DNA from: Chlamydiales bacterium
GTDB lineage: Bacteria > Chlamydiota > Chlamydiia > Chlamydiales > SM23-39
NCBI GenBank assembly: GCA_965261025.1
Contig: OZ253438.1
Coordinates: forward strand, 240,001 to 272,000
Length of the DNA: 32,000 nt
Reading direction: 5' to 3'
Shown here: positions 14,484 to 31,040 of the stretch, in pieces
How positions within the stretch are numbered: position 1 is the first letter of the stretch
Layout: every line of letters begins with the position of its first letter
The notes under the pieces: model-generated
Database searches by the model: none
What the model was told of the DNA's origin: nothing
What the model saw: the letters and a program-made list of their open reading frames with translations, nothing else
Made by a program: the position numbers and the translations under genes

Positions 14484-15073
14484 TTTTTTGCGTACCTTTG
14501 AATTGTTGATAAATTAATGCTTTTTTCTGGAAGTAACCTGCCAAGAAAGGGAACTTCGGAAAATTTTATGATTGCCTTTTCACTGTCTGGGTTGGATTTG
14601 CCGTTAAAAATGATCCCTAGAATTTTTATGGATCTTTTTTTAAGTGCCTCAATTGTGAGTAGCGTATGATTGATGCTACCTAAGTAGTGTTTTGATACAA
14701 GGATCCAGTGAGCCTTCCAGGTTTTAAAAAGATCGATGCTAAGAAGACTTTCGTTTAAAGGAACAAAAATCCCTCCAGCCATCTCAATAATCAAGGGATG
14801 ATTTGTTATAGGTGGGATGATTTTTTCAGGATGGATTATTCGGTTTTCTAAGCGGGCTGCATGATGTGGAGAAAGTGGGGCCTTAAAAGTATAAGCTGGG
14901 GGGTGAACTTTGTGATTCGAAGAAAGGAATCTTGTAATCATAGCAGAATCAGTATCGGAGGCTCCGCTTTGGACCGGCTTCCAATAATCTCCTTTAAAAA
15001 TCGTGGTAATAACTGCAGAAACAACTGTTTTACCAACTCCTGTGTTAATTCCTGCTATGATAATATCAGCCAT
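14450..15073 (-). CDS. bioD: Dethiobiotin synthetase
   Basis: 207 aa. P-loop 'GINTGVGKTVVS' and 'EMAGG'. Overlaps bioF and bioA. Confidence 0.9.
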   Translation of the reverse strand: MADIIIAGINTGVGKTVVSAVITTIFKGDYWKPVQSGASDTDSAMITRFLSSNHKVHPPAYTFKAPLSPHHAARLENRIIHPEKIIPPITNHPLIIEMAGGIFVPLNESLLSIDLFKTWKAHWILVSKHYLGSINHTLLTIEALKKRSIKILGIIFNGKSNPDSEKAIIKFSEVPFLGRLLPEKSINLSTIQRYAKKWQQSGIPSLK

Positions 15074-16145
15074 ATTGCCTTATAAGCTGGAGTAGGTTTA
15101 GGAGCTCTTTCCTTGAATTAAATGAATGGAGAGTTAGTCGGATATTTTCTTTTCCTCTTTGCACTGTTGGACTCAAAAGAGCTCGAACGTCAAATCCTTC
15201 TTTCATAATAGCTGAAACAAGCGCTAGAGCTTCTTGGTTATTTCGCACAAAAATGGGCTGAATGGCAGTAGAAGAACGGTTTGAAAGCTGAATTAGATCT
15301 TGCAAATGCACTCTTTCTGCCTCTAATTGAGGAAAGAGAGTATAACTACATTTAATAGCCGCTAAAGAGGAAAAAGGAAGGGCTGTTGTATAGATGAATG
15401 ATTTAGCAAAGTTGATAAGTGTTTCTTTTAAATGGGGATCACCCAATATAGCAGCTCCAAAGACGCCAAGCGCTTTGCCAAAGGTTACAGTTTGGGCAAA
15501 AATTTTCTTATTTAGACCTGCCTTATGAACAAGACCTCTTCCCTGATTTCCACATATCCCAATTGCATGGGCTTCATCAACGATCAAGTGAGCATGATAT
15601 TTTTGGGAGAGATGAAAAATTTCAGCTAAGGGCGCTAAAGATCCATCTGTTGAGTAAATGGATTCAATGCAGATATAAGCTTTTCTCCTTTGGGTAATTT
15701 GTGTGAGTCTATTTTCTAAATGATTTAGATCATTATGTTTAAAAGGAAATGCCTTTGCTTTAGCTAGGCGGATGCCTTCATGGGTCGAAGCATGAATATG
15801 GGCATCAAATAATAAGATATCTTCTTCTTTTGCAATGCAGCTGATTAAACCGATATTGGCCATATAACCACAATTGAAAATTAATCCAGCTTCAAATCCA
15901 TGAAATGCAGCAATCTTTGCTTCAAGTTCTTCCACATAGGTATTATTTCCTGTAAGAAGGCGAGACCCGGTTGAACCCAAATAGTTTAGGGACTCCCATT
16001 CAGAAAGCACGGCTTGTTTTAATTGCAAAGATTTTGCAAGCCCCAAATAGTCGTTGGAAGCAAAATCAATCAGATTTTCTTTAATTTGCAAAGATCGAAA
16101 ATTTCCGATTTGTTTACGTTTTAGTAGAATTTGATTCACAGGCAT
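15066..16145 (-). CDS. bioF: 8-amino-7-oxononanoate synthase
   Basis: 359 aa. 'LIVDEAHAIG' and PLP-Lys 'TFGKALG'. Sits in the bio operon. Confidence 0.9.
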   Translation of the reverse strand: MPVNQILLKRKQIGNFRSLQIKENLIDFASNDYLGLAKSLQLKQAVLSEWESLNYLGSTGSRLLTGNNTYVEELEAKIAAFHGFEAGLIFNCGYMANIGLISCIAKEEDILLFDAHIHASTHEGIRLAKAKAFPFKHNDLNHLENRLTQITQRRKAYICIESIYSTDGSLAPLAEIFHLSQKYHAHLIVDEAHAIGICGNQGRGLVHKAGLNKKIFAQTVTFGKALGVFGAAILGDPHLKETLINFAKSFIYTTALPFSSLAAIKCSYTLFPQLEAERVHLQDLIQLSNRSSTAIQPIFVRNNQEALALVSAIMKEGFDVRALLSPTVQRGKENIRLTLHSFNSRKELLNLLQLIRQYG

Positions 16146-17094
16146 AGCTCTTACGCTTTTTCAGTCCTAATAAGTTAAACATTTCTTCATCTGAGTCATT
16201 CGATGTATTTCCTACAGTGAGTAGTTTCTCACCGGCAAAAATAGAATTGGCCCCGGATAAGAAACAAAGTGTTTGCTCTTGGTATGATAACTCAATGCGT
16301 CCCGCAGAAAGACGGATCATTGATTTAGGCATAAGGATTCTAGCGATAGCAACCATCCGGATAAATTCCCAAGAGGAGAGTTTTGGTTGATTTGCTAAAG
16401 GAGTTCCTGGAATGGGGCTCAATTGATTGATAGGAACAGATTCTGGGTGAGGATTTCTATGAGATAAAGCTAAAAGAAGTTCTAGTCGATCTTCTTTTGT
16501 TTCTCCCATGCCCATAATGCCTCCACAGCAAACACTTATTCCTGATTTCTCAACAATATCAAGTGTATTAATACGATCTTGATAGGAGCGTGTGGTAATA
16601 ATTGTTTTATAAAAACGCTCTGAGGAGTCTAAGTTATGGTTATAAGCATAAAGTCCTGCTTGTTTTAATTTTTCTGCTTGAAGCTTACTTAAAAGGCCAA
16701 GTGTGCAACAAACTTCTACTCCTAAATTGGCTATCCCTTTAACCATGCGCAAAGTCTCATCAAACTGCTTACTATTTCGAACATTTCTCCAAGCGGCTCC
16801 AAGACATATTCTTGTTGCCCCTTTTATACTTGCTTTTTTGGCCGCAGCCATAACTTCTTCATATTGCATCATGGGCTGAGCTTTGACATTTGTTTGATAG
16901 TGAGAAGATTGAGCGCAGTATTTACAATCTTCTGAGCAACCTCCTGTTTTAATTGAGATCAAATGGCAAACTTGGATTTCTCCCATCTTGTGGTGCATTT
17001 TGTGAATTTTCATCGCCTCTACGATCAATTCCAAAAGAGGCTTCGAATAGAGAATTTGTAACTCCTGAAAGGTCCAGTCCGATCGAATGGTCAT
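16114..17094 (-). CDS. bioB: Biotin synthase (radical SAM)
   Basis: 326 aa. 'GGCSEDCKYCAQS' CX3CX2C motif. First gene of the operon. Confidence 0.95.
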   Translation of the reverse strand: MTIRSDWTFQELQILYSKPLLELIVEAMKIHKMHHKMGEIQVCHLISIKTGGCSEDCKYCAQSSHYQTNVKAQPMMQYEEVMAAAKKASIKGATRICLGAAWRNVRNSKQFDETLRMVKGIANLGVEVCCTLGLLSKLQAEKLKQAGLYAYNHNLDSSERFYKTIITTRSYQDRINTLDIVEKSGISVCCGGIMGMGETKEDRLELLLALSHRNPHPESVPINQLSPIPGTPLANQPKLSSWEFIRMVAIARILMPKSMIRLSAGRIELSYQEQTLCFLSGANSIFAGEKLLTVGNTSNDSDEEMFNLLGLKKRKSYACESNSTKT

Positions 17095-18457: not shown

Positions 18458-19114
18458 CTAGGAAAGAGCTTCCAGTTTGTCTATGTCTAAGTGGCAGATT
18501 AGCTGTAAATTGCTATTTATTTTTTCAATATTCCAGTTCCACCAAGCAATTTTCTGCAAACGATCAATGGTTTTATCATCGAACCTCATTTTCACAACTT
18601 TTGCAGGGTTTCCAGCAACAATCGAATAAGGGGGAACATCTTTTACTACGACAGATCTAGCCGCTATAATAGCTCCATTTCCTATCTTGACTCCATTCAT
18701 CACCAAAGAATCATATCCAAACCAAACATCGTTTTCCACGATGATATCCCCTTTAACTGGCAAGTCATAGACATTGAAGGCAGACTCCCAACCGTGACCA
18801 AAGATGGGAAAAGGATAGGTGCTAATTGCATCAAGTTTATGATCTCCCGTCATGATAAACTTGGTTTCTGCGGCAATAGCGCAAAATCTCCCTATAACAA
18901 GCTTAACTTTGGAAAAATCGTAGTTGTACAAGACGTTGTATTCTTCAAACTTATCTGGTCCGTACCGACAATCATCAAAATAGCTATAGTCACCAACAAA
19001 AATATTAGAAGCCTTGACGAATTTTTTTAGGAATACAAGCTTATCATAATCTTTAATAGGGTATAGGTTGTCTGGATTTGGGCCTGTCATGCCTCGGAGT
19101 TTATTGAAATTCAA
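18458..19114 (-). CDS. vat: Vat-family streptogramin A O-acetyltransferase-like (hexapeptide-repeat xenobiotic acetyltransferase)
   Basis: Colinear with remembered Vat(A)/Vat(D): 'GPNPDNLYPIK', 'VGDYSYFD', 'IGRFCAIA', 'STYPF', 'VENDVWFG', 'GNGAIIAARSVVVKDVPPYSIVAGNPAKVVKMRF', 'WWNW'. TTG start at 19114; alternative ATG at 19090. Confidence 0.85.
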   Translation of the reverse strand: MNFNKLRGMTGPNPDNLYPIKDYDKLVFLKKFVKASNIFVGDYSYFDDCRYGPDKFEEYNVLYNYDFSKVKLVIGRFCAIAAETKFIMTGDHKLDAISTYPFPIFGHGWESAFNVYDLPVKGDIIVENDVWFGYDSLVMNGVKIGNGAIIAARSVVVKDVPPYSIVAGNPAKVVKMRFDDKTIDRLQKIAWWNWNIEKINSNLQLICHLDIDKLEALS

Positions 19115-19117
19115 GCA

Positions 19118-19417
19118 TTAAATCAAGAATCCCTGCGTATAAAGGTTGGTTTTAGTAGGAAGATTATGAATATAAAGGTCTTTGTATACAGGGGAGTGAT
19201 TAATAATGGAGGGCTTCCCAATAATATGTATATCCAAAGCATTATCTAGATTTTGCCGATCAGCTATGGCTGAGTCACTGGGTAGTTTATTGGTATTGAT
19301 ACGCTTAAACACAGGAGTTCTTAAGAGCCTATACGATTTTAACATCGAAATACCATGATTGCCTAACGAGTCAAGGAAACTTGCACTAGCCAATTGAAAG
19401 GCTGAAGGGTCAGACAA
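19118..19417 (-). CDS. Hypothetical 99-aa ORF (TTG start), possibly a gene remnant
   Basis: Only evidence is the open frame ending 3 nt before the vat start. No recognisable motif. Confidence 0.2.
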   Translation of the reverse strand: MSDPSAFQLASASFLDSLGNHGISMLKSYRLLRTPVFKRINTNKLPSDSAIADRQNLDNALDIHIIGKPSIINHSPVYKDLYIHNLPTKTNLYTQGFLI

Positions 19418-19642
19418 GTTTTAGTATCCACTAAAAGAAGGTGAAGATCACACAGTCAAGTTCTATTTTTATAGAGAATTAGTCGATTTTTCTCTTCAGC
19501 GCTATCTTGCTTCAAGTAGAAGCTACTGGTTTTTTCTTAAAAATTATTTTTGAAAAATAAGTATGAAGCTTTTAGGCTGATAACCACTTCTTACCAGGAA
19601 TATCAATTACGCATAGACGAAAGTAGAAAATTGATAAAAATT

Positions 19643-21301
19643 ATGAGACTAGGTTTTTCTATTTGTTCTTATAACCGGCCCTATGAACTGAAGCGTTGTA
19701 TTGACTCCTTATTATTTACTACACAACATTTAAAAAATACGTATTATCTTTTGGTCGATAATTGCTCCCCTCAAATTTCGAAATCACAGCTTGAAAATTA
19801 TCGAAATACTGCTCTTTCTAACCTTAATATAGTAAGGTTTGCGTCTAACAAAGGTATTACAGGTGCATTTAACTTCTCTTGTTATAGCTTATCAAAAAAC
19901 AATTGTGATATTTTTTTTATTATTAACGATGACATTTTTTTTAAAAAACGTGGGTGGGTTGAAGGATATTTGTTAGCACACAAGCAATCGGGTATCCATC
20001 ATTTTAATTTCATGGACGGAAGAAATATTGTTGGAAGGCAGTCTTTTGGTTCAGTTGAAGTCACTTATCATAATTGGGTTAGAGGGTGTCTAGAAGTAAT
20101 TACCAAGGAGTGTTACAAACAAGTAGGCGGTTATCGAAAATGCTTTCATGATTTTGGTTGCATGGATACCGACCTTTCCGATCGGATTATTTTAAATGGA
20201 TTTGCAAGCTCTTATCTGCAAGAACTTTATTCTTATTGTACTACCTCCTCATATAAAGGACATTACAATATGGGTTTTTCTGCAGATATTGAACAAGCTC
20301 GGAATTATATTTTTGATCCTCATCCAAACATGGGGGTAGGGAACCCCAAGTCACAGTATTCGAAGAAAAAGGAGGGTTTTGAGATTTTGAGTTTCGAACG
20401 AGAAAAGAGAACAAATCATCTCCTGGTATTAACATATCATCACATTTTAAATGCAAAAAATTCGAAAGGTTTTCCAAAAGATTTTGGAGTAACTACTGTT
20501 GAATCTTTTAAATCTCAGATTCACACTTTAATTAAAATGGGATACCATTTCTTTTCTCCAAGTCAACTAAATACTCAAAGGCCCTTACCCAGTAAAATAT
20601 GCATTTTATCCTTTGATGATGGCTATCATTCTATTTATCAAAATGCTTATCCGATTCTGAAGAACGAAGGAATTTCAGCCATTTATTTTCTTACTACAGG
20701 TTTTTTGGATCAGCAAGAACTATTTCCTTATCACGAATTTCTTTGGTTCTTAGAAAGCTGCAAAGACAGAAGTATTAAGCTGAGCCTCCTTCCTTCTCAA
20801 TGTAATCAGCTCACAGAAAGGGAACTGCGCCTAAAGTTAAAATGGTTTTTTCGTTTTTCAGCAAATAAACAGCAGCAAAAAGAAATGATTCATTTTTTAA
20901 AAGGTACTTTCGAAAATAACTCTTATCCAGAGCGTTTTTATTTAACTTGGGGACTGGCTTCAAAAATGAGTGATGTCTTTGAATATGGGGCCCATACTGT
21001 CACCCATCCTCAACTAAGCCTTATAAATTCAACAGATATGAAGAAAGAAATCTATAAATCAAAGCAAGAGCTTCAAAAGCGATTAGGCGGGGGAAACTGG
21101 TTTGCTTATCCATATGGATACAGTAGTTCTTTTAATCAAACAAGCATCAACTTTGTAAGGGAAAGTGGTTTTTTAGGTGCTTTTACTACAGAACCTAAAA
21201 AAAATACGCTTCCTATTAAAGAGCCTTTTTTAATAGGTAGGTTCTCTCCGGAGAACCTAGCTGGAGAAGATTTTAAAAAGCGAGTTAAAGAGCTTAGATG
21301 A
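19643..21301 (+). CDS. Fusion protein: GT2 glycosyltransferase (N) + NodB-type polysaccharide deacetylase (C)
   Basis: ATG at 19643 gives 'MRLGFSICSYNRP', a typical GT2 start (track TTG at 19550 is the alternative). 'LLVDNCS' and 'IINDDIFF'. C-domain has 'LSFDDGYHS', 'GAHTVTHP' and 'FAYPYGY' NodB motifs. No TM segment seen. Confidence 0.8.
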   Translation: MRLGFSICSYNRPYELKRCIDSLLFTTQHLKNTYYLLVDNCSPQISKSQLENYRNTALSNLNIVRFASNKGITGAFNFSCYSLSKNNCDIFFIINDDIFFKKRGWVEGYLLAHKQSGIHHFNFMDGRNIVGRQSFGSVEVTYHNWVRGCLEVITKECYKQVGGYRKCFHDFGCMDTDLSDRIILNGFASSYLQELYSYCTTSSYKGHYNMGFSADIEQARNYIFDPHPNMGVGNPKSQYSKKKEGFEILSFEREKRTNHLLVLTYHHILNAKNSKGFPKDFGVTTVESFKSQIHTLIKMGYHFFSPSQLNTQRPLPSKICILSFDDGYHSIYQNAYPILKNEGISAIYFLTTGFLDQQELFPYHEFLWFLESCKDRSIKLSLLPSQCNQLTERELRLKLKWFFRFSANKQQQKEMIHFLKGTFENNSYPERFYLTWGLASKMSDVFEYGAHTVTHPQLSLINSTDMKKEIYKSKQELQKRLGGGNWFAYPYGYSSSFNQTSINFVRESGFLGAFTTEPKKNTLPIKEPFLIGRFSPENLAGEDFKKRVKELR

Positions 21302-22713
21302 ATAAAGAACAAGAATTTGAATCAGTATTAGAATCCTTAAAGATATTGGATATTCAAGAAATAACGCATACGCTCATAAAGAAAAAATTCTCTTCTTTTT
21401 ATCAGTCTTATCAAATCACTTCAGACGATTTAGTTGTTTTTCTTTTGACTTATTTTAAACCAGACATATCTGTATATGATATCCTTAAGCAGACTAGCCT
21501 GAATAAAAATCAGATACTACAAGCTTTCAAAAAAATTAACTCTTGCACCCTTTTCCAAAGGCTTTATCTATCTCATAGAACACATAGAAATTTTTACCGA
21601 AAAATAAACACCTTATTGAAGTCACCAAAAAAACTGTATGAGATGATTCAGGATCAATCTTCAACTCTTCTGGAGCTAGAAGTACATCCTGCTCTATTTT
21701 GTAATTTGCGATGTGTTTTTTGCTACAGTAAAGGGCAGGGAGTTTATAGATATATTCATGAAAAAGGACGTAACCCCCTTACAATCAATCAATGGAAACA
21801 AATTATTGAAGAGGCAAAAGACCTAGGTGTTTCTAAGATTGCCATAAGTGGTGGCTATGAGCCCTTTAAAGCCGGTGAAACATTGGGAATTATTGATCAT
21901 GCCCATAATTTAGAAATACCTATCGAAATCTATACGAATGGAACAATTCCCCTTACTTCAGAAAAACCTGTATGGGATACGCTACAAAAACTGACGGCTA
22001 TTCATCTGAGTTTTCGAGGAACAAATCCAGAAACTCATGCAAAAGTTACAAGATCGACTCCTCAAAGCTATCAAATTTTATTAGAAAATTTCCAAAAACT
22101 GCTAGCCTCGAAAAAGAAGGGGGAACTTGAAGCCAAAATTACGGTTTCTTTCTTTGTGCACAAAGATAATATATCTTCGATTTCAGAGATTATTCAGCTA
22201 GCAGAAGGGGTTGATTCTATCAATTTTTCTAGCGATAATTACGAAGGGTTGAAGCATAGTCTTTCTAAACAACAATTTACGGATCTTCAAAAAGAACTCC
22301 ATTCAGTTCAGCCTTATATTTTAGGATATAAAAAACCTGTTGTAACGTTGAATGATGATTTATGGATGCTTTATCAGAAAGATAAAAACAAGCCCACTAA
22401 TCCGCTAATTCAGAATTATTTATGTTATAATTCTTTCATTAGACCTACGATTAATCCTTTTGGTGATGTTTATAGATGTTGTTTGGTTGCTCAACCAAAT
22501 TTTGATTTAAAACATACAAAACTAGGTACTGTCGATCAAAATCATTCTTTGAAACAAATTCTACAAAGAGCTATTTCCCATCCGCTATACACAAAAAATT
22601 GTATAAAGTGCAATCCTTCAGAAAAAACGGGCTTGATTGTGATGAATAAATTAAAGAATGATATAAAAGCAGGAGTTTTGCCTGAGCATCAACCCTATAG
22701 AGGTTTATTATGA
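21298..22713 (+). CDS. Radical SAM enzyme with Cys-rich (SPASM/twitch-like) C-terminus (rSAM-1)
   Basis: 471 aa. 'EVHPALFCNLRCVFC' (C135/C139/C142; nt 21700-21723) and 'IAISGGYEPF'. C-terminal Cys: 'CYNSF...YRCCLVAQ...CIKCNPSEKTG'. Confidence 0.85.
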   Translation: MNKEQEFESVLESLKILDIQEITHTLIKKKFSSFYQSYQITSDDLVVFLLTYFKPDISVYDILKQTSLNKNQILQAFKKINSCTLFQRLYLSHRTHRNFYRKINTLLKSPKKLYEMIQDQSSTLLELEVHPALFCNLRCVFCYSKGQGVYRYIHEKGRNPLTINQWKQIIEEAKDLGVSKIAISGGYEPFKAGETLGIIDHAHNLEIPIEIYTNGTIPLTSEKPVWDTLQKLTAIHLSFRGTNPETHAKVTRSTPQSYQILLENFQKLLASKKKGELEAKITVSFFVHKDNISSISEIIQLAEGVDSINFSSDNYEGLKHSLSKQQFTDLQKELHSVQPYILGYKKPVVTLNDDLWMLYQKDKNKPTNPLIQNYLCYNSFIRPTINPFGDVYRCCLVAQPNFDLKHTKLGTVDQNHSLKQILQRAISHPLYTKNCIKCNPSEKTGLIVMNKLKNDIKAGVLPEHQPYRGLL

Positions 22714-24002
22714 GAAAAAAGAAAGACCGAATAGCAGGTAAAGTAATTGACTATTCTAACATGCCTGAGAGGATGGGGATAGCTCCTCAGTTGCAAAAGA
22801 GTATCCTAGAGGAAGTAGATTTAGAGTCTGTCCTAGACAACATTGAAAAAGTTTGGCAGGACGGTTTTGATTACAAGGATATGCTAAAGCTATTGCCTTT
22901 TTCAAAAGAAGTTAAGCAAAAAATTGTAGATATGCATTGGCTTCCAGCCAAGGGAGAAAAGAATTTTAACTACATCAAAGAGAATACTCATTCTGGTTTT
23001 CACAAGTTAGTCTTTAAAAGGATTTTAATCCTTCTTCATGCAAAAGCTTTAGGAAATACCCTTCCTAGAAATGAAGATATGTGTGTTGAAATTACCTCTG
23101 CTTGCAATAAAAAGTGTCTTCATTGCTATATGCATGAAAAGAATCTTGGAGAGTTCATGAACACAGAGCTTCTTCATAGTTTAGTTGAATATGCCAATCA
23201 AAACATGCTTTCTTTACAAATGATTGGCGGAGAGCCTATGCTCGATAAAAGACTTGTTCCTCTCATTCGTAAATATCCAACCTTAATTTTTTATGTTGTA
23301 TCAAATGGGGTGCGCTTTTCTGATCGCTTAATCCATTCAATTCGGAATGAGATACATAATTTTCAACCTATCTTAAGTTTAGAAGGGTTTCAATCTTATA
23401 ACGATTCAATTCGGGGGATAGGCAGTTTTAGTAGAACTGTTGATATCATGAAAAAACTCAAAAAGTTAAAGATTCCTTATCAAACTGATACCATTATCAC
23501 TACCAAAAATATTAATTCTGTTCTCTCAGATGATTATATGAATTTCCTAATGGATCATGGTCCTTGGGGAGTTGGACTCTATAAGTATAGACCAGTTGAA
23601 GGGCTGGATCATGGATTATCGCTTTCTAAGAAAGACTTGGATTTATTCGAAGAAAAAATTAATGAATTTCTTCACAAGTATCCTTTTCGGTTTTTTCATG
23701 AAGAACCCATTCACATTGCAAACCGCAGAAAAACAAGGGTATGTAAGGGTCTTTTAACAATCACTGTACATGGCCATGTAAAAATGTGTCCCTCTATTCA
23801 TAAACCCACGCTTACTCTTCAGTGCTTTAATAGAGATGAAGTGGCTAACGTTTTAGACACTTGGTACAACATAGTAGGAGTAAACAGTCCTGGATGTCCT
23901 CTTTTCTTTAATACAGATTCTATTAAAAACTTCTACCAAGCACTTCCGCAATCTCGGAAAACTTGTGTAAACAAGAAAGAATCTTTAACTGTTCTTTCTT
24001 AA
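22710..24002 (+). CDS. Radical SAM enzyme with Cys-containing C-terminal domain (rSAM-2)
   Basis: 430 aa. 'VEITSACNKKCLHCY' (C132/C136/C139) and 'MIGGEPMLD'. C-terminal 'VCKG...VKMCPS...PGCPLF'. Confidence 0.85.
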   Translation: MRKKKDRIAGKVIDYSNMPERMGIAPQLQKSILEEVDLESVLDNIEKVWQDGFDYKDMLKLLPFSKEVKQKIVDMHWLPAKGEKNFNYIKENTHSGFHKLVFKRILILLHAKALGNTLPRNEDMCVEITSACNKKCLHCYMHEKNLGEFMNTELLHSLVEYANQNMLSLQMIGGEPMLDKRLVPLIRKYPTLIFYVVSNGVRFSDRLIHSIRNEIHNFQPILSLEGFQSYNDSIRGIGSFSRTVDIMKKLKKLKIPYQTDTIITTKNINSVLSDDYMNFLMDHGPWGVGLYKYRPVEGLDHGLSLSKKDLDLFEEKINEFLHKYPFRFFHEEPIHIANRRKTRVCKGLLTITVHGHVKMCPSIHKPTLTLQCFNRDEVANVLDTWYNIVGVNSPGCPLFFNTDSIKNFYQALPQSRKTCVNKKESLTVLS

Positions 24003-25387
24003 AAAAAAGCACTGGAAGGTTTTTTTTCATTTACCCTTATCTTTTTTGTAATTAAATCGTTAATTGGATGGATGAGTTCTCCCTGGCTGCACTCATATTT
24101 ATTACAAAAAGAGCAAACTCTATTCGTTGCATAATAGCTATTTAATGAGAATTTCACTCTTTCCTTCTCTTCGTTAAAACGGGTAAAATCTGCTATAATC
24201 ATTCTTTGTTTTGGATTAAAGTTCCCCACCTCAGCACATTCTAAGCAAGGGTAGATAAAACCTGATGCTGAAATAATTGTACTGACTAAAGGAACCCCGC
24301 ACGTAGAGGGGTATTCTCTTAGACCAAATCCAATATTTCCCATGGTGTATCTTTCAAAAATTTCCGTATAATTTGTAAAGTTTATAATAAAATCTCCAAG
24401 ATCGGGGCAGCTTGCAATGAGTCTCGAAAATTCTGATTTAAGATGATCAAACTGTTCAGGGGTACAGGCATTGGAGTATGTATTTGCTTTTACGACCTCT
24501 TCTCTTTCCGGCATGAGAGGACGAAGAGGGCGAAATTGAAAGTTTAAAGCCTGAATATTTCTAGCAGATTTAAAAAGATGATATACCTTTACAAGAAAGT
24601 CAGGTATTTCCTCTATATTGTCCCTCATATATAAAAATCCAATGCCAAGATTTTGAATTTTCCGGCCATGAAATTCTCGATCAATATATTCTCTTGCTAG
24701 TAAAAGGACATCTTCTAGGGTGTGTTTAGGCATACGGTTTCCTAGTTTCTTCCTTCTATAAGTCTCTTCTGTTCCGGCATCTACATTAATCCTAAGCCAT
24801 TCGAGTAAGGCAACCCCCGGTCCAATATCTTTTGATCCATTTGAGTTCATTCCCAGTGCTATTCTTGGGAATTGTTCATCTAGAGCAAGAATAAAGTCTG
24901 TCATTGAAGCTTCCTGATCAGAATCTTTATAAAGAGAAGGCTCGCAAAAACCTCCTGAGATCGCAATCGCTTTAGGGTGAAAATATTTTGTATTTTGAAG
25001 AGAGCTAAATGGTAGATATTTATATCGAGAATCATCGCGATTACCTAGCCAGGAGCAGTAGTTACATCGATAATTACAAAAACTGACGGGATGAAATTCA
25101 ACTTTGGGTCGCTCAACCATTTTTAAGAGATCTTCTTTTAAGGTATCGATTCGCAAAAAAGTTTGTAACTCATTAATCGTAGCTTCAGTGGTCAGTTTTT
25201 CTTCGTAATGGTCTTTTAGGATTTCATGAACCATTTTGGCTTTCGTTCCAAATAGATTGTATAAGTTTCCTGTTGAATAGGCATTTTCAATGTGTTCTTT
25301 ATACTGAAAAACGCGGTGAACAGATCTTACTTGTTCCATTCTATCAGAATTATGCTGTAATATTCTCAACTGACTCATAAGCTTCAC
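23999..25387 (-). CDS. Radical SAM enzyme with Cys-rich (SPASM-like) C-terminus (rSAM-3)
   Basis: 462 aa. 'EFHPVSFCNYRCNYC' (C104/C108/C111) and 'IAISGGFCEPS'. C-terminal 'CGVP...YPCLECAEVG...CSFCNKYECSQG'. GTG start at 25387; alternative ATG at 25378. Confidence 0.85.
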   Translation of the reverse strand: MKLMSQLRILQHNSDRMEQVRSVHRVFQYKEHIENAYSTGNLYNLFGTKAKMVHEILKDHYEEKLTTEATINELQTFLRIDTLKEDLLKMVERPKVEFHPVSFCNYRCNYCSWLGNRDDSRYKYLPFSSLQNTKYFHPKAIAISGGFCEPSLYKDSDQEASMTDFILALDEQFPRIALGMNSNGSKDIGPGVALLEWLRINVDAGTEETYRRKKLGNRMPKHTLEDVLLLAREYIDREFHGRKIQNLGIGFLYMRDNIEEIPDFLVKVYHLFKSARNIQALNFQFRPLRPLMPEREEVVKANTYSNACTPEQFDHLKSEFSRLIASCPDLGDFIINFTNYTEIFERYTMGNIGFGLREYPSTCGVPLVSTIISASGFIYPCLECAEVGNFNPKQRMIIADFTRFNEEKERVKFSLNSYYATNRVCSFCNKYECSQGELIHPINDLITKKIRVNEKKPSSAFF

Positions 25388-27094
25388 CTAAATCGTAATT
25401 AAGCTATCAAATGCTTTAGTCGTAGGATAAGATTCGACTCTCTTTTTATTCAAAAAGAATATTTTATCCATCATGGATAAAAACTGAACCCGATGGGTAA
25501 TAAAAATCATTGTTTTATCCGGAAAGTGTTTCAATAGATTTTTCATAATTTTTTCACTTGTATTCAGATCTATTCCAGAAGTGCATTCATCGAAAATCAT
25601 AATTTGAGGACTTTGCATCAAAAGACGTACAATCATAAGCCTTTGTTTTTGTCCGACTGAAAGAGAAACCCCACTACTACCAACTACGGTGTTTATTCCA
25701 AAATACAGGTTTTCGATAAATTCCGAACTACAAGTCCATTCCAAACAGCATTTAATATAGTCTTTTCCCTTAGAAGAGCCATACGTAATATTTTCCTGTA
25801 TAGTTCGATTAAAAAGCGTTGTTTCTTGCGGAAGCATACCAATTTGAGAATATAAAATATTCTGGTCTATGGAATTGAGAGGCTTGTTATTGAGAAAAAC
25901 TGCTCCCTTTTGAGGTTTAATAAAACGCATTAAAAGTTTTGCTATTGTTGTTTTTCCTGAGCCTGAGGGGCCAAGTATGCCCACTTTTTCGCCAGAAAAA
26001 ATCTGTAAATTCATTTTATTAAAAATGTCCTGAACATCCAAATAACGAAAAAAAACGTTTTCAAAAGAAATCTCACTTTTTCTCTTGAAGAGGCTTTTTG
26101 GGGAAAAAGAGGATAGAGTTTCTTGTTGGATCTTTAATTTTTTGATTATGGATTTCTGAGAACCCACTTCTTCAATTACTTCTGTAAAACGCATACTTAT
26201 ATACCATAAATAGCCATTCAAACTAAATACTAAAGATAGGATAAAAGTAAGGTCTCCCATAGTAAGCTGTTTTTGGGAATAAAAATAACAACAAAGCCCA
26301 ATCATTGTCGTTAATACTAAAAAGCATAAAATACTAAAGAGTAATTTGATTTTTTCCTGATATATTCCAAAACGTTCATAAGCAGCTCTTTCTCTATTTT
26401 GGTTTTTTTTTAAATAATTTATTTCATTTAGGATTGTATTTGATGTTTTTATGGAAAAAAGATTCTCTAAAGCATCAAACAGGTTTTTCTGTAATTTAGC
26501 GAGAGTTTTCGTATAAATTCGATTTGATTTTAATGAATTTTTTAAAGAGTATAAAGAGAGCATAATATGCAGAGCAAACCAAATAAGAATTATTAAGGAA
26601 AAAATGAAATTCTTATTTATTAGTAAGATTGAAGAGGCAACAAACATTACCGAAATTGGAATTAATACAGAAATACAAAGTTTTACAGTAGATTCCATAC
26701 TCCTTACAACTTCGAGAATATAGTGTGGCGCAATACCTGACCTAGAAGATCTTGCATAAACAAGAGGGCTATTTAACTCATTTGTAAAGAGTTTTTCCCT
26801 CAAATAATTACGGAATAATGGAAAAGTTTTAATCGATAAGAAGCCGTCCATTCTCATACAAAACTCCATAAAAGCGCGGGTTGTAATAAGAATGATAAAA
26901 ATGTAAAAATAATTATGGAAATCTAGTTTTCTAACACTTTCTCCTCTAATTGAATCGACAAAAAACTTTAAGCAAAGGGGAAAAGTCAATTCATGAACAG
27001 GTTTCCCTAAGTTGAAAAAAACTAATAGAATAAATCGGTAAAAGAGAGCTTTAATAGATCCCTTATACAAACAAAGCAAATCTATTTTAGGCAT
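25388..27094 (-). CDS. ABC exporter, fused TMD-NBD half-transporter (no N-terminal peptidase domain)
   Basis: 568 aa. About 6 hydrophobic segments, then Walker A 'GPSGSGKTT', signature 'LSVGQKQRL' and Walker B 'IMIFDECTSGID'. Confidence 0.9.
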   Translation of the reverse strand: MPKIDLLCLYKGSIKALFYRFILLVFFNLGKPVHELTFPLCLKFFVDSIRGESVRKLDFHNYFYIFIILITTRAFMEFCMRMDGFLSIKTFPLFRNYLREKLFTNELNSPLVYARSSRSGIAPHYILEVVRSMESTVKLCISVLIPISVMFVASSILLINKNFIFSLIILIWFALHIMLSLYSLKNSLKSNRIYTKTLAKLQKNLFDALENLFSIKTSNTILNEINYLKKNQNRERAAYERFGIYQEKIKLLFSILCFLVLTTMIGLCCYFYSQKQLTMGDLTFILSLVFSLNGYLWYISMRFTEVIEEVGSQKSIIKKLKIQQETLSSFSPKSLFKRKSEISFENVFFRYLDVQDIFNKMNLQIFSGEKVGILGPSGSGKTTIAKLLMRFIKPQKGAVFLNNKPLNSIDQNILYSQIGMLPQETTLFNRTIQENITYGSSKGKDYIKCCLEWTCSSEFIENLYFGINTVVGSSGVSLSVGQKQRLMIVRLLMQSPQIMIFDECTSGIDLNTSEKIMKNLLKHFPDKTMIFITHRVQFLSMMDKIFFLNKKRVESYPTTKAFDSLITI

Positions 27095-28037
27095 ATATTT
27101 TCGTATTGACTAGATGATTCAAATGATCCAAGGCCTCAAAAGCTTTTTCTGGTAAATCCAGCGCTTTACAATTTTCTTCAAGTTGAGCTAATGAAGTGAC
27201 ACCTAAAATTACAGATGTAACCTTAGGATTTTTTAGACACCAGCCGATTGAAGCCTGGGAAAGAGAGAGGTTAAGTTTATCAGTCATTTTTATTAATTCA
27301 GAAATAATAGCTCTTTTTGCCTTCCATTCAGGAAAGGCATATTTGGGAAATCTTCCATAACGACTTTGTCTAGTTACTTTATTTTGGTACTTTCCAGTCA
27401 ATAATCCTCCTGCTAAGGGGCTATACGTCATAAGAGCCAGTTTCTCTTTTTCGATAAGTGGAGTAAGTTCTTTTTCTAGTCGAGCAGGGCTTAGCAGGTT
27501 ATAAAGGCTTTGTTCTACAATAGGCAACATATAGCCCCTTTTTCGACAAATTTCATAAGCTTCTTCAAGGATTGGTAAACCCCATTGGGATGTTCCCCAA
27601 TAGAAAACCTTTCCTTCCTGGATAAACTGGTTAACAGTATAAAGTATTTCCTCTAGGGGAGTATTGGGATCATATCTATGGAGAAACAGAAGATCCACAT
27701 AATCTGTCTGTAATCTTCTCAGAGAATGGGTTAATCCTTCCCTTAAATGTTTTCTTGAAAGACCTTCTTGATTTGGCTTCTCTCCTCCCCAGTACAGTTT
27801 TGTAGAAAGGACAAACTCATCTCTTTTAAAATCTCTTAAAACCTCACCAAGAATCATTTCAGAGAGACCTGAAGCATAAACCTCTGCTGTATCAAAAAAA
27901 TTAATTCCCAAATCAAAAGCTTTTGAAATCAGTTTTTTTGAATCAGCAAAATCTAACTTTATTCCAAAGTTTAGCCAAGAACCTAAGGCAATTTCACTTA
28001 CAAGCAGTCCCGATTTTCCTAGTTTTTTATACTTCAA
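27087..28037 (-). CDS. Aldo-keto reductase (Kv-beta/YajO-like)
   Basis: 316 aa. 'LGKSGLLVSEIALGSW', 'FFDTAEVYASG', 'LSTK', 'YVDLLFLHRYD'. Confidence 0.9.
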   Translation of the reverse strand: MKYKKLGKSGLLVSEIALGSWLNFGIKLDFADSKKLISKAFDLGINFFDTAEVYASGLSEMILGEVLRDFKRDEFVLSTKLYWGGEKPNQEGLSRKHLREGLTHSLRRLQTDYVDLLFLHRYDPNTPLEEILYTVNQFIQEGKVFYWGTSQWGLPILEEAYEICRKRGYMLPIVEQSLYNLLSPARLEKELTPLIEKEKLALMTYSPLAGGLLTGKYQNKVTRQSRYGRFPKYAFPEWKAKRAIISELIKMTDKLNLSLSQASIGWCLKNPKVTSVILGVTSLAQLEENCKALDLPEKAFEALDHLNHLVNTKIYA

Positions 28038-29125
28038 AAAAGTATCCCTTCAAATGAATTCAGGGCCTTTTTTGACCATGGTTTGAGGGTTACTTCAGGT
28101 CTTTTCTCTTTGAGCAATTGGTGTGCTATTTCATATCGGAGTCCATATTTTTTCATTATATATGCCGTCAAAATTGTTGCACTTCGTGAGACACCTCCAT
28201 AACAGTGAATAAGCAAAGGCTTTTTTAGATGACGACAATTATCAATGACATCGAATATCTCTTGTAAATTCGGATAGATGATTTCCCAAGCACCTTCATC
28301 ATCTTCAATTGGATAAATTAAACGATTTTCAACATGCATTTTCGGTTGAAATGTCGATAGGGCTTGACTGAATTTTTTTCCAGTTACTGAGGTATCCATA
28401 AAGCTAACAATAAAGCTTATTTTTAACTCAGTACAAGCAACTTCATCATAGCCATAAGTTTGTATAGCTCTTCTAAGTTCAGTTTGCTCAGATGCAGAAT
28501 AATATCTATCAATACACTCCTTTACCTCTTTATTCATCTCAGGAAAAAAAGTTTTTACAAAAGAAGGGTCACAACTTAGAAAAGCAAAAACATTCCCTAA
28601 AAAAACATGCGGAAATATCTCGTTGACATGTCTCAATGGAATGGCTTTATCAGTAGCTTGAGGTACGATTCCTAAGCTTTCTATAATATCCATACGATTA
28701 GGACTAGAAACTCTCACATGTTCTAGTAAGGCCTTTCGATCTAGCCCACATCCTATATCAGGACTCTTTATTAGAGCTTCTACGATAGGAGCAGCACCTC
28801 TATTCACAGCTAGGTGTAAAAGTGTTTCTCCGTTCTGATTCGGAATACTTAGCTCAAGCTTTGTCTTAAAAATTTTTTCCCAAAAGGTCTTTGTATAAAT
28901 AAAAAATGCAATTGATGACCAATGGTTTAGTTTTACTTCTTGATAAAATAATTTTTCTAGATCACGAGAAAGTATCAATAAGAATAGGGCTCGCGTGAGA
29001 TAAAAACCTCGGATAGCACAGGTAACTATTTTCCTGCATAGAAAGGAAGTCTTATCAAAGAACCCATGCAGATTAGCCGTATAAGACCGAGAAACGTCTG
29101 AGCAAGTTACGAAAGGGGAAATCAT
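28034..29125 (-). CDS. Ankyrin-repeat + dual-specificity (Cys-based) phosphatase domain protein, eukaryote-like
   Basis: 363 aa. ANK-like 'NGETLLHLAVNRGAAPIVEALIK'. Active-site loop 'IHCYGGVSRSAT' (HCX5R[ST]). AAGGAG lies 8 nt upstream of the ATG. Confidence 0.8.
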   Translation of the reverse strand: MISPFVTCSDVSRSYTANLHGFFDKTSFLCRKIVTCAIRGFYLTRALFLLILSRDLEKLFYQEVKLNHWSSIAFFIYTKTFWEKIFKTKLELSIPNQNGETLLHLAVNRGAAPIVEALIKSPDIGCGLDRKALLEHVRVSSPNRMDIIESLGIVPQATDKAIPLRHVNEIFPHVFLGNVFAFLSCDPSFVKTFFPEMNKEVKECIDRYYSASEQTELRRAIQTYGYDEVACTELKISFIVSFMDTSVTGKKFSQALSTFQPKMHVENRLIYPIEDDEGAWEIIYPNLQEIFDVIDNCRHLKKPLLIHCYGGVSRSATILTAYIMKKYGLRYEIAHQLLKEKRPEVTLKPWSKKALNSFEGILF

Positions 29126-29770
29126 AAAACCTACTCCTTATGTTAAGGACTGCAAGACGTTTTATAATTTTTTGAGTTTATTGTTAAGAAATTTTTACAA
29201 GATAGGCTTACAAACAGAAATTACGAATGACCCTCCCGTCTTCTTTTGTAAACAGCCGTGTTTCTAGCCAAGCGTTATTATTGAGGGAAGCAGGCCGTTA
29301 ATTCCGAGATAGAGGCTAGTTTAGTAAAACAATTTTTGTGTGCACTGTTTGATAGGTGAGCATTTTGTGTAGCCTGATTTCCGAGGTCGATAGTGTCTAG
29401 TATCTCTTAGACAACTAAAGATTTGCAAAAATGAGGCAACCTGGACTTGATACCGAAGGCTCGATGGGTTATGAGGGGGAAGAAATTCTAGCCTACCTAG
29501 CAAAGACCAACTCTCAGTAACGTTATAAAGAGCTTGAGGAATGATTACTACTGGTTATTATGGGGCTTTGCTAGAAAAAGTTGCCCCTCTTTTGCCCCAA
29601 AGCTTTTTGCCATAATAAAGAAAAAAATTGATTAATTGCGACTTCTTACACAAAAAATCATGAATGAAAAAGGAAAATTTTGTAAGGTCTTTAAGATTTA
29701 GGAATAGAATATAGGGAAAAACCCTTTAAAGAGAGTTCTTTGATTCTATAAAGGTAGGGGAAGTAACAAT

Positions 29771-30184
29771 ATGAACCAGGAAGACATTCGCTGGAAACAG
29801 CGCCTAAGTAATTTAAAACTTGCACTGGGTCAACTGGGTGATGCTATAACACTTGCAAAACAAAGAGATTTATCCTTGTTAGAACAACAAGGACTCATTC
29901 AGGCTTTCGAATTTACGCATGAATTATCTTGGAATGTGATGAAAGATTATTTTTATTTTCAAGGGAACTCGGCTGTTACTGGATCTCGTGATGCTTCTCG
30001 AGAAGCTTTCAAAAATGGGTTAATTCAAGACGGAGAAGTCTGGATGGAGATGATTCAGAGCCGAAATCGAACATCCCATACTTACAATCAGGAAATTGCA
30101 CAACAAATTTCTCAGAGAGTTATTGAATTTTATTACCCCGCATTTGAGTTATTCGTTAAAAAAATGGAAGAGATAAAAGAGTGA
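29771..30184 (+). CDS. HEPN-domain protein, HI0074 family (nucleotidyltransferase substrate-binding protein; HepT-like toxin)
   Basis: 137 aa. 'WKQRLSNL...AL' N-terminus and the Rx4-6H motif 'SRNRTSHTY'. Confidence 0.85.
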   Translation: MNQEDIRWKQRLSNLKLALGQLGDAITLAKQRDLSLLEQQGLIQAFEFTHELSWNVMKDYFYFQGNSAVTGSRDASREAFKNGLIQDGEVWMEMIQSRNRTSHTYNQEIAQQISQRVIEFYYPAFELFVKKMEEIKE

Positions 30185-30510
30185 ATCAACCTGAAGCCAA
30201 GTTCGGTCTTAAAGCTACTGAAATAAGCGCAGTTCATGGCGTTTTCAAACTGTTTCCTGATTTGAAAAAGGTTAGTATTTATGGTTCTCGAGCAAAAGGA
30301 AATTATAGACCTGGATCTGATATAGATTTAACTCTACATGGTAAAAACCTGGCCTATCAGGATCTCGTAGCTATTGAAAATGCCCTAGACGAGCTATCTT
30401 TACCCTATACAGTAGATCTTTCAATTTATCATCTTCTTGATAATCCAGATTTAATTGATCATATCAAGCGTGTTGGTATTGAATTTTATCAACAAGCCAA
30501 AGATTGTTAA
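30181..30510 (+). CDS. Minimal nucleotidyltransferase (MNT; MntA-like antitoxin)
   Basis: 109 aa. 'IYGSRAKGNYRPGSDIDL' (GS...DxD). GTG start overlaps the HEPN stop (GTGA). Confidence 0.85.
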   Translation: MNQPEAKFGLKATEISAVHGVFKLFPDLKKVSIYGSRAKGNYRPGSDIDLTLHGKNLAYQDLVAIENALDELSLPYTVDLSIYHLLDNPDLIDHIKRVGIEFYQQAKDC

Positions 30511-30725
30511 GAGGTTGATATCAGCCCCAATATGGTCAAGATGAACCGGTAGTGACCTTGCCCCATTTTTAGGCCCAACCCTTTGTTAAGAGTGCTTAGT
30601 TGGATGGTCCTCTTGAGTAATAAGCCAGGGCGTTTTCCCTTTTTTGGAGAAGTTTGGTCTCGCTAAATTATAAAAATGTCTGTAGCTTTCCGCCTTCCTT
30701 AAAAAATCTTCCCTACAGCTAAATT

Positions 30726-31040
30726 GTGTCAGATTATAAAATTCTTCTTCATTCACATGCTGAGCGCATTTGGTACTCTGAGCAAATCATCAAAAATGGT
30801 TGGTCTCGAACTGTATTAGTGATGAGAATAGAGCCCAAGTTACACAAGAGAAAAGGAAAAGCAGTCAATAATTTTGCACTAACGCTTCCAGAGCCTTATT
30901 CAGACTTGGTCAAGGCAAAGACCCTAAAATTAAGCTATGCCTGGATGCAGTCTAAAGAATTTCGATCTAGGGTCTTGTGTGGTCTTTTATGTTCCTTTTT
31001 TGCTGCTAATTGGTCCACAGGCGGTCCCTACATAGAGTAA
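30726..31040 (+). pseudogene. Fragment of a DUF1016/YhcG-type (PDDEXK nuclease family) gene
   Basis: Only the central 'ERIWYSEQIIKNGWSRTVLVMRIEPKLHKRKGKAVNNFALTLPEPYSDL' segment resembles YhcG-family proteins. Similarity is lost after about 30915, and the N- and C-terminal parts are absent. Confidence 0.55.

Follow-up and report, generated by a model that had tools for sequence, protein, structure and literature searches.

A rare four-gene cassette with three radical SAM enzymes in a Chlamydiales bacterium and its possible role in amino-sugar tailoring

In a 32,000-nucleotide stretch of a Chlamydiales bacterium genome (assembly GCA_965261025.1, contig OZ253438.1, positions 240,001 to 272,000; "the window" below means this whole stretch) we analysed a dense locus of seven open reading frames (ORFs) at 19550-29125, encoding three radical S-adenosylmethionine (radical SAM, rSAM) enzymes, a glycosyltransferase fused to a de-N-acetylase, an ABC exporter, an aldo-keto reductase (AKR) and an ankyrin protein with a dual-specificity phosphatase domain (Ank-DSP). 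The conserved unit consists of four of these genes, the glycosyltransferase-deacetylase (GT2-CE4) fusion, rSAM-1, rSAM-2 and rSAM-3 (19643-25387), and the exporter, AKR and Ank-DSP lie outside it. We propose, with slightly better than even confidence, that the four-gene cassette assembles an amino sugar, and not a peptide, and remodels it by radical chemistry. The logic of glycosyl transfer followed by de-N-acetylation and radical SAM chemistry is known; new are the very rare, cross-domain cassette itself and its radical SAM enzymes, which belong to no curated subfamily. Literature searches brought up no account of a locus of this kind.

Conservation of the cassette

The cassette recurs in L005, a metagenomic contig of 68% GC from an unrelated organism, in the order fusion, rSAM-1, rSAM-3, rSAM-2 (contigs L005-L008 carry the orthologues collinearly). 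Identities to the window proteins are 33.5% for the fusion (P0161, E 6e-95), 29% for rSAM-1 (E 2e-49), 36% for rSAM-3 (E 5e-97), whose gene stands between those of rSAM-1 and rSAM-2, and 32% for rSAM-2 (E 3e-72), and due to this recurrence the arrangement of the four genes cannot be put down to chance. No relative of the ABC exporter, AKR or Ank-DSP was detected by tblastn (E<=0.01) in the 21.7-kb L005 locus, within 10 kb of the cassette, and it is for this reason that we regard four genes, and not seven, as the conserved unit.

A shorter variant, in which the fusion and rSAM-1 genes are adjacent, is found in L002/L004 and L009. The nearest standalone relative of rSAM-1 (P0009) is encoded directly downstream of a 567-aa fusion of GT2 and Polysacc_deac_1 domains, 40% identical to the window fusion (E 4e-143). 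The exporter, AKR and Ank-DSP are absent from these two-gene variants too. The two-gene contigs have 28-30% GC and are apparently archaeal. Neighbouring genes in L002/L010 and L009 also look archaeal (a 141-aa KH NusA-like protein, topoisomerase IB, CYTH, Dus), and one contig is labelled as an uncultured Methanosarcinales metagenome-assembled genome; its GC is unusually low for the order and the binning may be wrong. An ORF at the tail of L009, considered as a further radical SAM gene, was rejected as it is not one.

No further cassettes came up when 185,579 species genomes, JGI metagenomes (with rSAM-3) and IMG/VR were scanned, and clustering of about 15 billion sequences at 90% identity leaves each of the seven locus proteins a singleton. 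Occurrences of the cassette are extremely few and scattered over bacteria and archaea, a distribution that suggests horizontal spread. In the window, the GC content at third codon positions of the locus is close to that of housekeeping genes and a repeat search found no repeats bounding an island, so that composition gives no evidence of a recent transfer.

The L005 locus has further genes of its own. A 200-aa acidic, lipoprotein-like and extremely Cys-rich protein with a Stig1 domain (L005:9357-9959) is encoded 42 nt upstream of the fusion gene, and the rSAM-2 gene is followed by tightly packed genes for 1,047-aa and 323-aa proteins without Pfam match (L005:15489-19608) and then by a CHAT protease gene. 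None of these four proteins has a counterpart in the window.

A preliminary description of this DNA, made from the sequence without database searches, proposed the seven genes as one undescribed biosynthetic or modification system, a proposal that was to fall if they showed no conserved co-occurrence in related genomes. Co-occurrence is conserved for the four cassette genes and lacking for the exporter, AKR and Ank-DSP; the idea of a single seven-gene system was thus not upheld by L005 and the two-gene loci, and that of an undescribed system stands for the four genes, which are conserved elsewhere and whose radical SAM enzymes remain under all NCBIfam cut-offs.

Enzymes of the cassette

The first gene encodes a GT2 glycosyltransferase of the GT-A type fused to a CE4/NodB de-N-acetylase. 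Its mechanically assigned ORF opens with TTG 19550, and the true start is probably ATG 19643, because the alignments to three orthologues (40%, 38% and 33% identity over about 560 aa) all begin at residue 33 of the ORF; residue numbers below are counted from this ATG. Pfam reports GT2 (PF00535, 34.6 bits, gathering threshold 23.3), Glyco_transf_7C (PF02709) and Polysacc_deac_1 (PF01522, 61.9 bits, threshold 23.1). Invariant throughout the four-member family are D39, the NDD of INDD (94-97; N95, D96, D97) and the MDTD of GCMDTD, and the N-terminal 120 residues of the structure model (predicted local distance difference test, pLDDT, about 65-90) match GT-A structures, so the GT2 half combines family score, GT-A fold and a DXD-type motif.

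In the deacetylase half Y265-H266, the DDGY of FDDGY (D325, D326) and H451 with H455 of HTVTH are likewise invariant, which provides the acid, base and metal triad of the PgaB/IcaB type: an Asp-His-His triad with catalytic Asp and His, as expected of CE4/NodB enzymes. IcaB, PgaB and PplD are the profile and fold matches. No transmembrane segment is predicted and, judging from the sequence, the protein is probably cytoplasmic. Full-length fusions are represented by four members in all among 5.8 billion clusters. Remote relatives of the GT2 half, around its GI[QHK]HFNF motif, are found at 22-34% identity on 138 viral contigs of 25-39% GC (IMG/VR, L032-L111), and neither NodB nor radical SAM genes adjoin these GT2-only relatives in IMG/VR.

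All three radical SAM proteins carry the CX3CX2C motif, as the preliminary description had read from the translations, together with extra C-terminal Cys clusters that are kept in the orthologues; its domain calls agree with Pfam as well. Superfamily membership (CX3CX2C with a GGE-type motif and PF04055, gathering threshold 29.5) could be assigned to each, in the case of rSAM-3 through its motif and HHalign. The preliminary description had advised searches with models of radical SAM subfamilies, and these placed none of the three in a curated NCBIfam subfamily: scores reach 54 bits at most, where the cut-offs are 170-650.

rSAM-1 matches PF04055 at 55.1 bits. Among 17 sequences of its family C135/C139/C142 and the GG-E of the GGxE motif (185-188) are invariant, as are five further cysteines (C376, C394, C395, C435, C438). 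PF13186 (SPASM) scores 18.4 bits, under its cut-off of 21.5; the G-x4-C hairpin is present (GDVYRC) and the full CX2CX5CX3C block is absent. This pattern suggests a twitch-like domain with a candidate auxiliary cluster. The AlphaFold 2 model (pLDDT 88.4, predicted template-modelling score 0.88) consists of an all-alpha N-terminal domain, with nine helices and no strands in residues 1-117, a radical SAM core and a C-terminal hairpin domain. The top Foldseek match of this model, and its best full-length neighbour, is DesII (8hzv, TM-score 0.68/0.67 over 487 columns), followed by BlsE, viperins and MoaA. A profile of 23 family sequences against the Protein Data Bank (PDB) also ranks DesII first (E 1.1e-30), before SkfB (5e-18), MoaA (3e-15) and SuiB (2e-14). 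Profile search and predicted fold hence point to DesII as the closest characterised relative; the enzyme is DesII-like and not a DesII, since the resemblance is confined to fold and domain architecture. With rSAM-1 or rSAM-3 as the query, word-indexed homologue searches returned the query alone, and an exhaustive HMMER search with rSAM-1 returned full-length relatives at 28-33% identity only.

rSAM-2 matches PF04055 at 47.1 bits, has a conserved C-terminal Cys triad (C345/C360/C396) and is related to the rSAM-1 family with an HHalign probability of 93%. Among the three it is the farthest from the DesII-like clade.

rSAM-3, encoded convergently to rSAM-2 with a 4-bp overlap, is highly divergent and at 23.7 bits is invisible to PF04055 at the gathering threshold. 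CNYRCNYC and an SGG-CEP motif are kept in its orthologue, and HHalign relates it to the rSAM-1 family with 98-99% probability (E 1e-12 to 3e-16) over a region covering the E-x-HP motif and the C-terminal Cys domain. The conserved motif and this alignment are the sole grounds on which we take rSAM-3 for a true radical SAM enzyme, and it is a distant paralogue of the rSAM-1 family. It has no curated family match and, even with a profile, no PDB match. Its start is uncertain by up to 48 nt (16 codons) downstream of 25387.

Link to sugar metabolism

Most of the close full-length relatives of rSAM-1 (28-33% identity) are domains of bacterial proteins of 1,600-7,800 aa, which also carry PIG-L N-acetylglucosamine (GlcNAc) deacetylase, Polysacc_synt_2 or epimerase/dehydratase, GT2, NUDIX, methyltransferase and His-phosphatase domains. 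In P0010-P0020, P0022 and L029:10001-20059 a module of about 1,000 aa with PIG-L and a GT2-like domain precedes the rSAM-1-type domain at a constant spacing of about 840 aa, and the variable extras are a nucleoside diphosphate (NDP)-sugar dehydratase, NUDIX, methyltransferase, His-phosphatase and an additional GT2. The same block is split in Candidatus Termititenax (L001:6960-11446), where the gene of a 1,014-aa protein overlaps that of the rSAM-1 homologue. This protein has PIG-L and a weak GT2-like region, and over its whole length it is homologous to the segment that precedes the rSAM domain in eight giant proteins. A trio of glycosyltransferase, de-N-acetylase and rSAM-1 hence persists while the deacetylase fold is swapped between PIG-L and CE4. 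HHalign detected no relationship of the PIG-L module to GT2-CE4, rSAM-2 or rSAM-3, so that this swap is non-orthologous.

Second-tier relatives of rSAM-1 are fused to GFO/IDH/MocA sugar oxidoreductases or methyltransferases, and one standalone relative adjoins NUDIX and NDP-sugar dehydratase genes. For giant proteins of Omnitrophota, a 2026 preprint has independently placed radical SAM in one group with a module of sugar metabolism. Fusions and neighbourhoods tie the cassette to nucleotide-sugar and amino-sugar chemistry and offer enzymologists a substrate class; they also hint at what one module of the enigmatic giants in Omnitrophota and related phyla may do.

The giants clearly belonging to the rSAM-1 family have a single radical SAM domain each, so rSAM-2 and rSAM-3 are additions specific to the four-gene cassette. 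A more distant giant, P0099 of Candidatus Omnitrophota (6,428 aa), the one named giant examined, has three radical SAM domains with CX3CX2C motifs, of which residues 2837-3111 match the rSAM-3 family (E 4.5e-25) and the two others the rSAM-1 family. No other link of the fusion type was found to join rSAM-1-like with rSAM-3-like domains.

These partners bear directly on the alternative of a peptide that is ribosomally synthesised and post-translationally modified (RiPP) or a protein as the substrate, a RiPP-like character having been noted in the preliminary description. The radical SAM enzymes would then cross-link or epimerise a ribosomal peptide whose precursor is tiny or encoded elsewhere, GT2 would glycosylate it in a glycocin-like manner and the ABC protein would export it. 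SuiB, SkfB and CteB are indeed among the best single-sequence PDB matches of rSAM-1 and rSAM-2, many peptide maturases appear among the weak NCBIfam matches, all three enzymes have N-terminal extensions of about 100 aa, and the Cys-rich Stig1 protein of L005 is encoded closely upstream of the fusion gene. However, the gene upstream of the fusion differs in each of four loci (Stig1 Cys-rich, KH, OB-fold or none), and the window locus and its flanks offer no plausible small ORF, in line with the missing precursor of the preliminary description. A profile of 15 N-terminal domains has no match to PqqD or a RiPP recognition element (RRE) in Pfam or PDB, and the rSAM-1 N-terminal domain is modelled as all-helical, without the beta-sheet of such elements. 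Family profile and fold place DesII far above the RiPP maturases (TM-scores of 0.45-0.49 to the rSAM-1 model), members of the family are fused to sugar enzymes and never to peptidases or leader-binding proteins, and the exporter has no C39 domain. With neither a conserved adjacent precursor, nor an RRE, nor a leader peptidase at the locus, we consider the RiPP alternative improbable.

Proposed pathway of amino-sugar tailoring

It would be logical to suggest the following order of events for an amino sugar as the substrate. The GT-A domain would use a nucleotide sugar as donor and transfer its N-acetyl-hexosamine to an acceptor, and the fused CE4 domain of the PgaB/IcaB type, with its catalytic residues intact, would remove the N-acetyl group and free the amine. 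By homology, the DesII-like rSAM-1 may then abstract a hydrogen next to the amine-bearing carbon, leading to deamination, dehydrogenation or rearrangement, and its invariant extra cysteines may hold a cluster serving as an electron sink, as in twitch dehydrogenases. rSAM-3 and rSAM-2 would add further radical steps. No transmembrane segments are predicted in the four core proteins, so they should be soluble and cytoplasmic. The product might be exported by the adjacent ABC protein, a possibility suggested by gene position alone.

A place at the cell surface is the second alternative. The cassette would modify a surface polymer or lipid-linked glycan, similar to PgaC/PgaB in the synthesis of poly-N-acetylglucosamine (PNAG) or to ArnC/ArnD, and the ABC protein would be a flippase of the PglK/MsbA type. 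The deacetylase half most resembles PgaB, IcaB and PplD, whose substrates are polymers or lipid-linked glycans, the ABC protein has sub-threshold matches to MsbA and PglK, and GT2 with CE4 is the known pairing of ArnC and ArnD. Yet the fusion lacks a transmembrane segment, unlike processive synthases or ArnC, genes for polysaccharide export or polymerisation are absent nearby, and DesII-like enzymes work on soluble nucleotide sugars (PMC11434129). We hold such a role to be unlikely.

A viperin-type antiviral system producing modified nucleotides has hardly any probability in our estimate. It could be thought of in view of the weak PADLOC pVip matches of all three radical SAM enzymes (20-60 bits), the top NCBIfam match of rSAM-1 (viperin_w_prok, 54 bits against a cut-off of 180), the viperins among its fold neighbours and the toxin-antitoxin pair adjoining the locus. 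These scores, however, are far under the cut-offs and concern the generic radical SAM core only, viperins have neither the N-terminal nor the Cys-rich C-terminal domain, and the glycosyltransferase and deacetylase partners are without counterpart in pVip systems.

Several points weigh against the tailoring of an amino sugar as we propose it. SPASM/twitch enzymes mostly act on peptides, and the nearest characterised or solved relatives of rSAM-2, through the core only, are the peptide maturases SkfB (profile E 2.4e-14) and CteB. rSAM-1 scores 30.6 bits against the 450 of the DesII equivalog TIGR04426, and its five extra invariant cysteines stand against the single [4Fe-4S] cluster of DesII, so that the reaction may differ. 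The window encodes no NDP-sugar dehydratase or aminotransferase, and, apart from the source, the full cassette was found in only one organism, represented by 10 contigs out of several samples. The model of the fusion as a whole is poor (pLDDT 57), too low to be used as a clue to the acceptor, for which it was dropped. Finally, the substrate, the product and each chemical step of the cassette are what we infer from sequence and analogy.

We may even suggest, as a rather doubtful extension of the amino-sugar proposal, that a new amino-sugar metabolite, such as a deaminated, ring-contracted or C-C-coupled hexosamine glycoside, arises by a chemistry assigned to no characterised radical SAM subfamily and is exported by this bacterium of the obligate-intracellular (Chlamydiota-like) type via the ABC transporter into its host, and that the module of the giant proteins represents a widespread unrecognised glycan-tailoring reaction. 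Should a Chlamydia-like symbiont make such a product and export it, this would be an unusual case of specialised metabolism in a reduced genome. Independently of this, the analysis defines a testable four-gene unit, of which one member escapes Pfam at threshold.

Exporter, reductase and phosphatase

Immediately upstream of rSAM-3 and on the same strand lies the gene of a half-size type-I ABC exporter with a transmembrane and a nucleotide-binding domain. Pfam finds PF00664 and PF00005 only, and the lack of a C39 peptidase domain, pointed out in the preliminary description, was confirmed in this way. Walker A (GPSGSGKT), the signature LSVGQ in place of LSGGQ and Walker B (IFDE) are present; the protein remains under all NCBIfam cut-offs, and its gene has the lowest GC of the window (0.306, with 0.33-0.40 elsewhere). 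It has no relative in L005, L002 or L009, and the same applies to AKR and Ank-DSP. Its link to the cassette is position in this genome alone, and it is a possible exporter of the product.

AKR is Kv-beta/YghZ-like (PF00248, 222 bits; TIGR01293, 258 bits against a cut-off of 365); it is probably a passenger, and could reduce a keto-sugar product. Ank-DSP has a DSPc domain (PF00782, 63.7 bits) with the P-loop HCYGGVSRS at residue 307, one weak ankyrin repeat (ankyrin Pfam matches being sub-threshold) and one N-terminal hydrophobic, transmembrane-like segment (33-51), and is likely an unrelated eukaryote-like effector. Together they are probably co-transcribed passengers.

Should all seven genes nevertheless constitute one pathway, AKR would reduce a keto sugar made by the radical SAM enzymes and the phosphatase would dephosphorylate an intermediate. 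Overlapping or abutting junctions (28034/28037, 27087/27094 and 25387/25388) imply co-transcription with rSAM-3, a DesII-type reaction gives a ketone usable by a reductase, and the giant relatives carry a His-phosphatase domain. But no AKR or DSP relative lies near the cassette in L005, L002, L004 or L009, the nearest relatives of AKR are housekeeping Kv-beta/YghZ reductases, and Ank-DSP combines a P-loop of the protein-phosphatase type with an ankyrin repeat and a hydrophobic N-terminus, as is typical for secreted eukaryote-like effectors. A common pathway of the seven is, in our judgement, quite improbable.

Locus layout and surroundings

The recomputed ORF list reproduces exactly the seven coordinates and all overlapping or abutting junctions of the preliminary description, with ATGA start/stop overlaps at 21298 and 22710 (Table 1). 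The locus had been called gap-free, and this holds for the junctions as given and depends on mechanical ORF starts, of which the first is probably, and that of rSAM-3 possibly, located further downstream. No tRNA or Rfam match was found in the window, and promoter and terminator scans gave counts below shuffle expectation.

The left flank contains a complete biotin operon, whose bioB is a fourth radical SAM gene of the window, a DUF6314 protein and a Vat-like hexapeptide acetyltransferase. The N-terminus of the DUF6314 protein resembles by eye a winged-helix DNA-binding domain, and this protein could be a regulator. The Vat-like ORF is preceded in frame, with one stop codon between, by a 99-aa ORF without family match (together 18458-19417, minus strand), which may reflect disruption of a longer gene or simply an ORF that is unrelated.

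On the right, 645 bp after 29125 without convincing ORF, tRNA or Rfam match are followed by a HEPN/MNT pair and degraded mobile-element fragments, and the region 29126-31040 looks like debris at an island edge. Housekeeping genes of the window (HflX, RNase HIII with a short RodZ as a pair, a Pkn-type kinase with an FGE domain) fit a Chlamydiota-like genome.

Table 1. Features of the locus and its flanks, in window coordinates
Feature	Position	Strand	Remarks
bioB, bioF, bioD, bioA (biotin operon)	13221-17094	-	complete, overlapping junctions; about 2.5 kb upstream of the locus
DUF6314 protein, 264 aa	17278-18072	+	C-terminal domain, 37 bits; between the bio operon and the locus
Vat-like hexapeptide (streptogramin-type) acetyltransferase	18458-19114	-	opposite strand, outside the operons
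GT2 (GT-A) glycosyltransferase fused to CE4/NodB de-N-acetylase	19643-21301	+	mechanical ORF 19550-21301; Pfam, orthologues, catalytic residues
rSAM-1, DesII-like three-domain radical SAM enzyme	21298-22713	+	PF04055, profile, predicted fold
CNLRCVFC	21700-21723	+	CX3CX2C of rSAM-1
rSAM-2, radical SAM enzyme	22710-24002	+	PF04055, L005 orthologue
CNKKCLHC	23103-23126	+	CX3CX2C of rSAM-2
rSAM-3, highly divergent radical SAM enzyme	23999-25387	-	motif, L005 orthologue, HHalign
CNYRCNYC	25055-25078	-	CX3CX2C of rSAM-3, residues 104-111
Half-size type-I ABC exporter	25388-27094	-	PF00664 and PF00005
Aldo-keto reductase, Kv-beta/YghZ-like	27087-28037	-	PF00248
Ankyrin and dual-specificity phosphatase (DSPc) protein	28034-29125	-	PF00782
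HEPN (NTase_sub_bind)/MNT nucleotidyltransferase pair	29771-30510		right flank
Transposase-like fragment	30586-30756	-	right flank
DUF1016_N fragment	30726-31040		right flank

Comparison with known systems

DesII is the radical SAM deaminase of thymidine diphosphate (TDP)-4-amino-4,6-dideoxy-D-glucose in the desosamine pathway (PDB 8HZV/8HZY), and its substrate is thus a sugar with a free amine, like the one proposed for rSAM-1. It comprises an N-terminal domain of six helices, a radical SAM core with C141/C145/C148 and GGE at 187-190, a C-terminal hairpin with two helices, and a single cluster (PMC11434129). rSAM-1 has the same three-domain layout with both motifs at nearly the same positions (CX3CX2C at 135-142 against 141-148, GGE-type at 185-188 against 187-190), but in the structural alignment the two are only about 14% identical, and the window has no partners of the DesI/DesV/DesVI type.

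The butirosin enzymes BtrM, BtrD and BtrN, which lead to 2-deoxystreptamine, perform GlcNAc transfer, de-N-acetylation and dehydrogenation by a twitch radical SAM enzyme with a four-Cys auxiliary cluster. The preliminary description had also heard an echo of this sugar logic, carried out by different enzyme families, and fusions, neighbourhoods and DesII matches favour it over RiPP logic. Btr uses GT4 and PIG-L where the cassette has GT2 and CE4, Pfam finds neither 2-deoxy-scyllo-inosose synthase nor aminotransferase among the seven locus genes, and the top 50 fold neighbours of the rSAM-1 model do not include BtrN.

The identical three-step logic of glycosyltransferase, deacetylase and radical SAM enzyme is known for HpnI, HpnK and HpnJ, where GlcNAc is added, deacetylated, and the glucosamine is rearranged by the radical SAM enzyme to bacteriohopanetetrol (BHT) cyclitol ether; their genes are clustered and are all present or all absent together (PMC12583986). 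In the window, by contrast, glycosyltransferase and deacetylase are fused, there are three radical SAM enzymes, these have no B12-binding domain, and no hopanoid gene (shc/hpnH) is found. No Hpn model is among the 9 NCBIfam matches of the fusion, the 4 of rSAM-3 or the top 25 of rSAM-1 and of rSAM-2, and the cassette does not fall in the Hpn cyclitol-ether family.

For tunicamycin, the domains of the giant proteins (dehydratase/epimerase, PIG-L, glycosyltransferase, radical SAM, NUDIX, methyltransferase, His phosphatase) mirror the roles of tunA, E, D, B, N, M and G (PMC6965331), and an ABC exporter is present in the window too. The seven locus genes, by Pfam, include no tunA, tunC or tunH type (epimerase/dehydratase, acyltransferase, pyrophosphatase), so the essential set tunABCDEH is incomplete. 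Radical SAM matches of about 340 aa, considered as TunB-like, were rejected for their unrelated gene contexts, and tunicamycin is kept as an analogy only.

With the PNAG enzymes (PgaC/PgaB, IcaA/IcaB) the fusion has only the CE4 catalytic arrangement in common: it has no transmembrane segment, and its NCBIfam scores are under the cut-offs for PgaB (66 bits against 322) and IcaB (44 against 248). The peptide maturases SkfB, SuiB and CteB share with rSAM-1 and rSAM-2 a radical SAM core and a C-terminal Cys-rich hairpin domain, but the locus lacks what accompanies them (RRE, precursor, leader peptidase), and with profile or structure they score under DesII. The cassette falls outside the DesII, Hpn, Tun, Btr and PNAG families and would work like the DesII, Hpn, Tun and Btr pathways; it would extend to new enzyme families and lineages the theme of glycosyl transfer, de-N-acetylation and radical SAM chemistry represented by hopanoid cyclitol ethers, aminoglycosides and tunicamycins.

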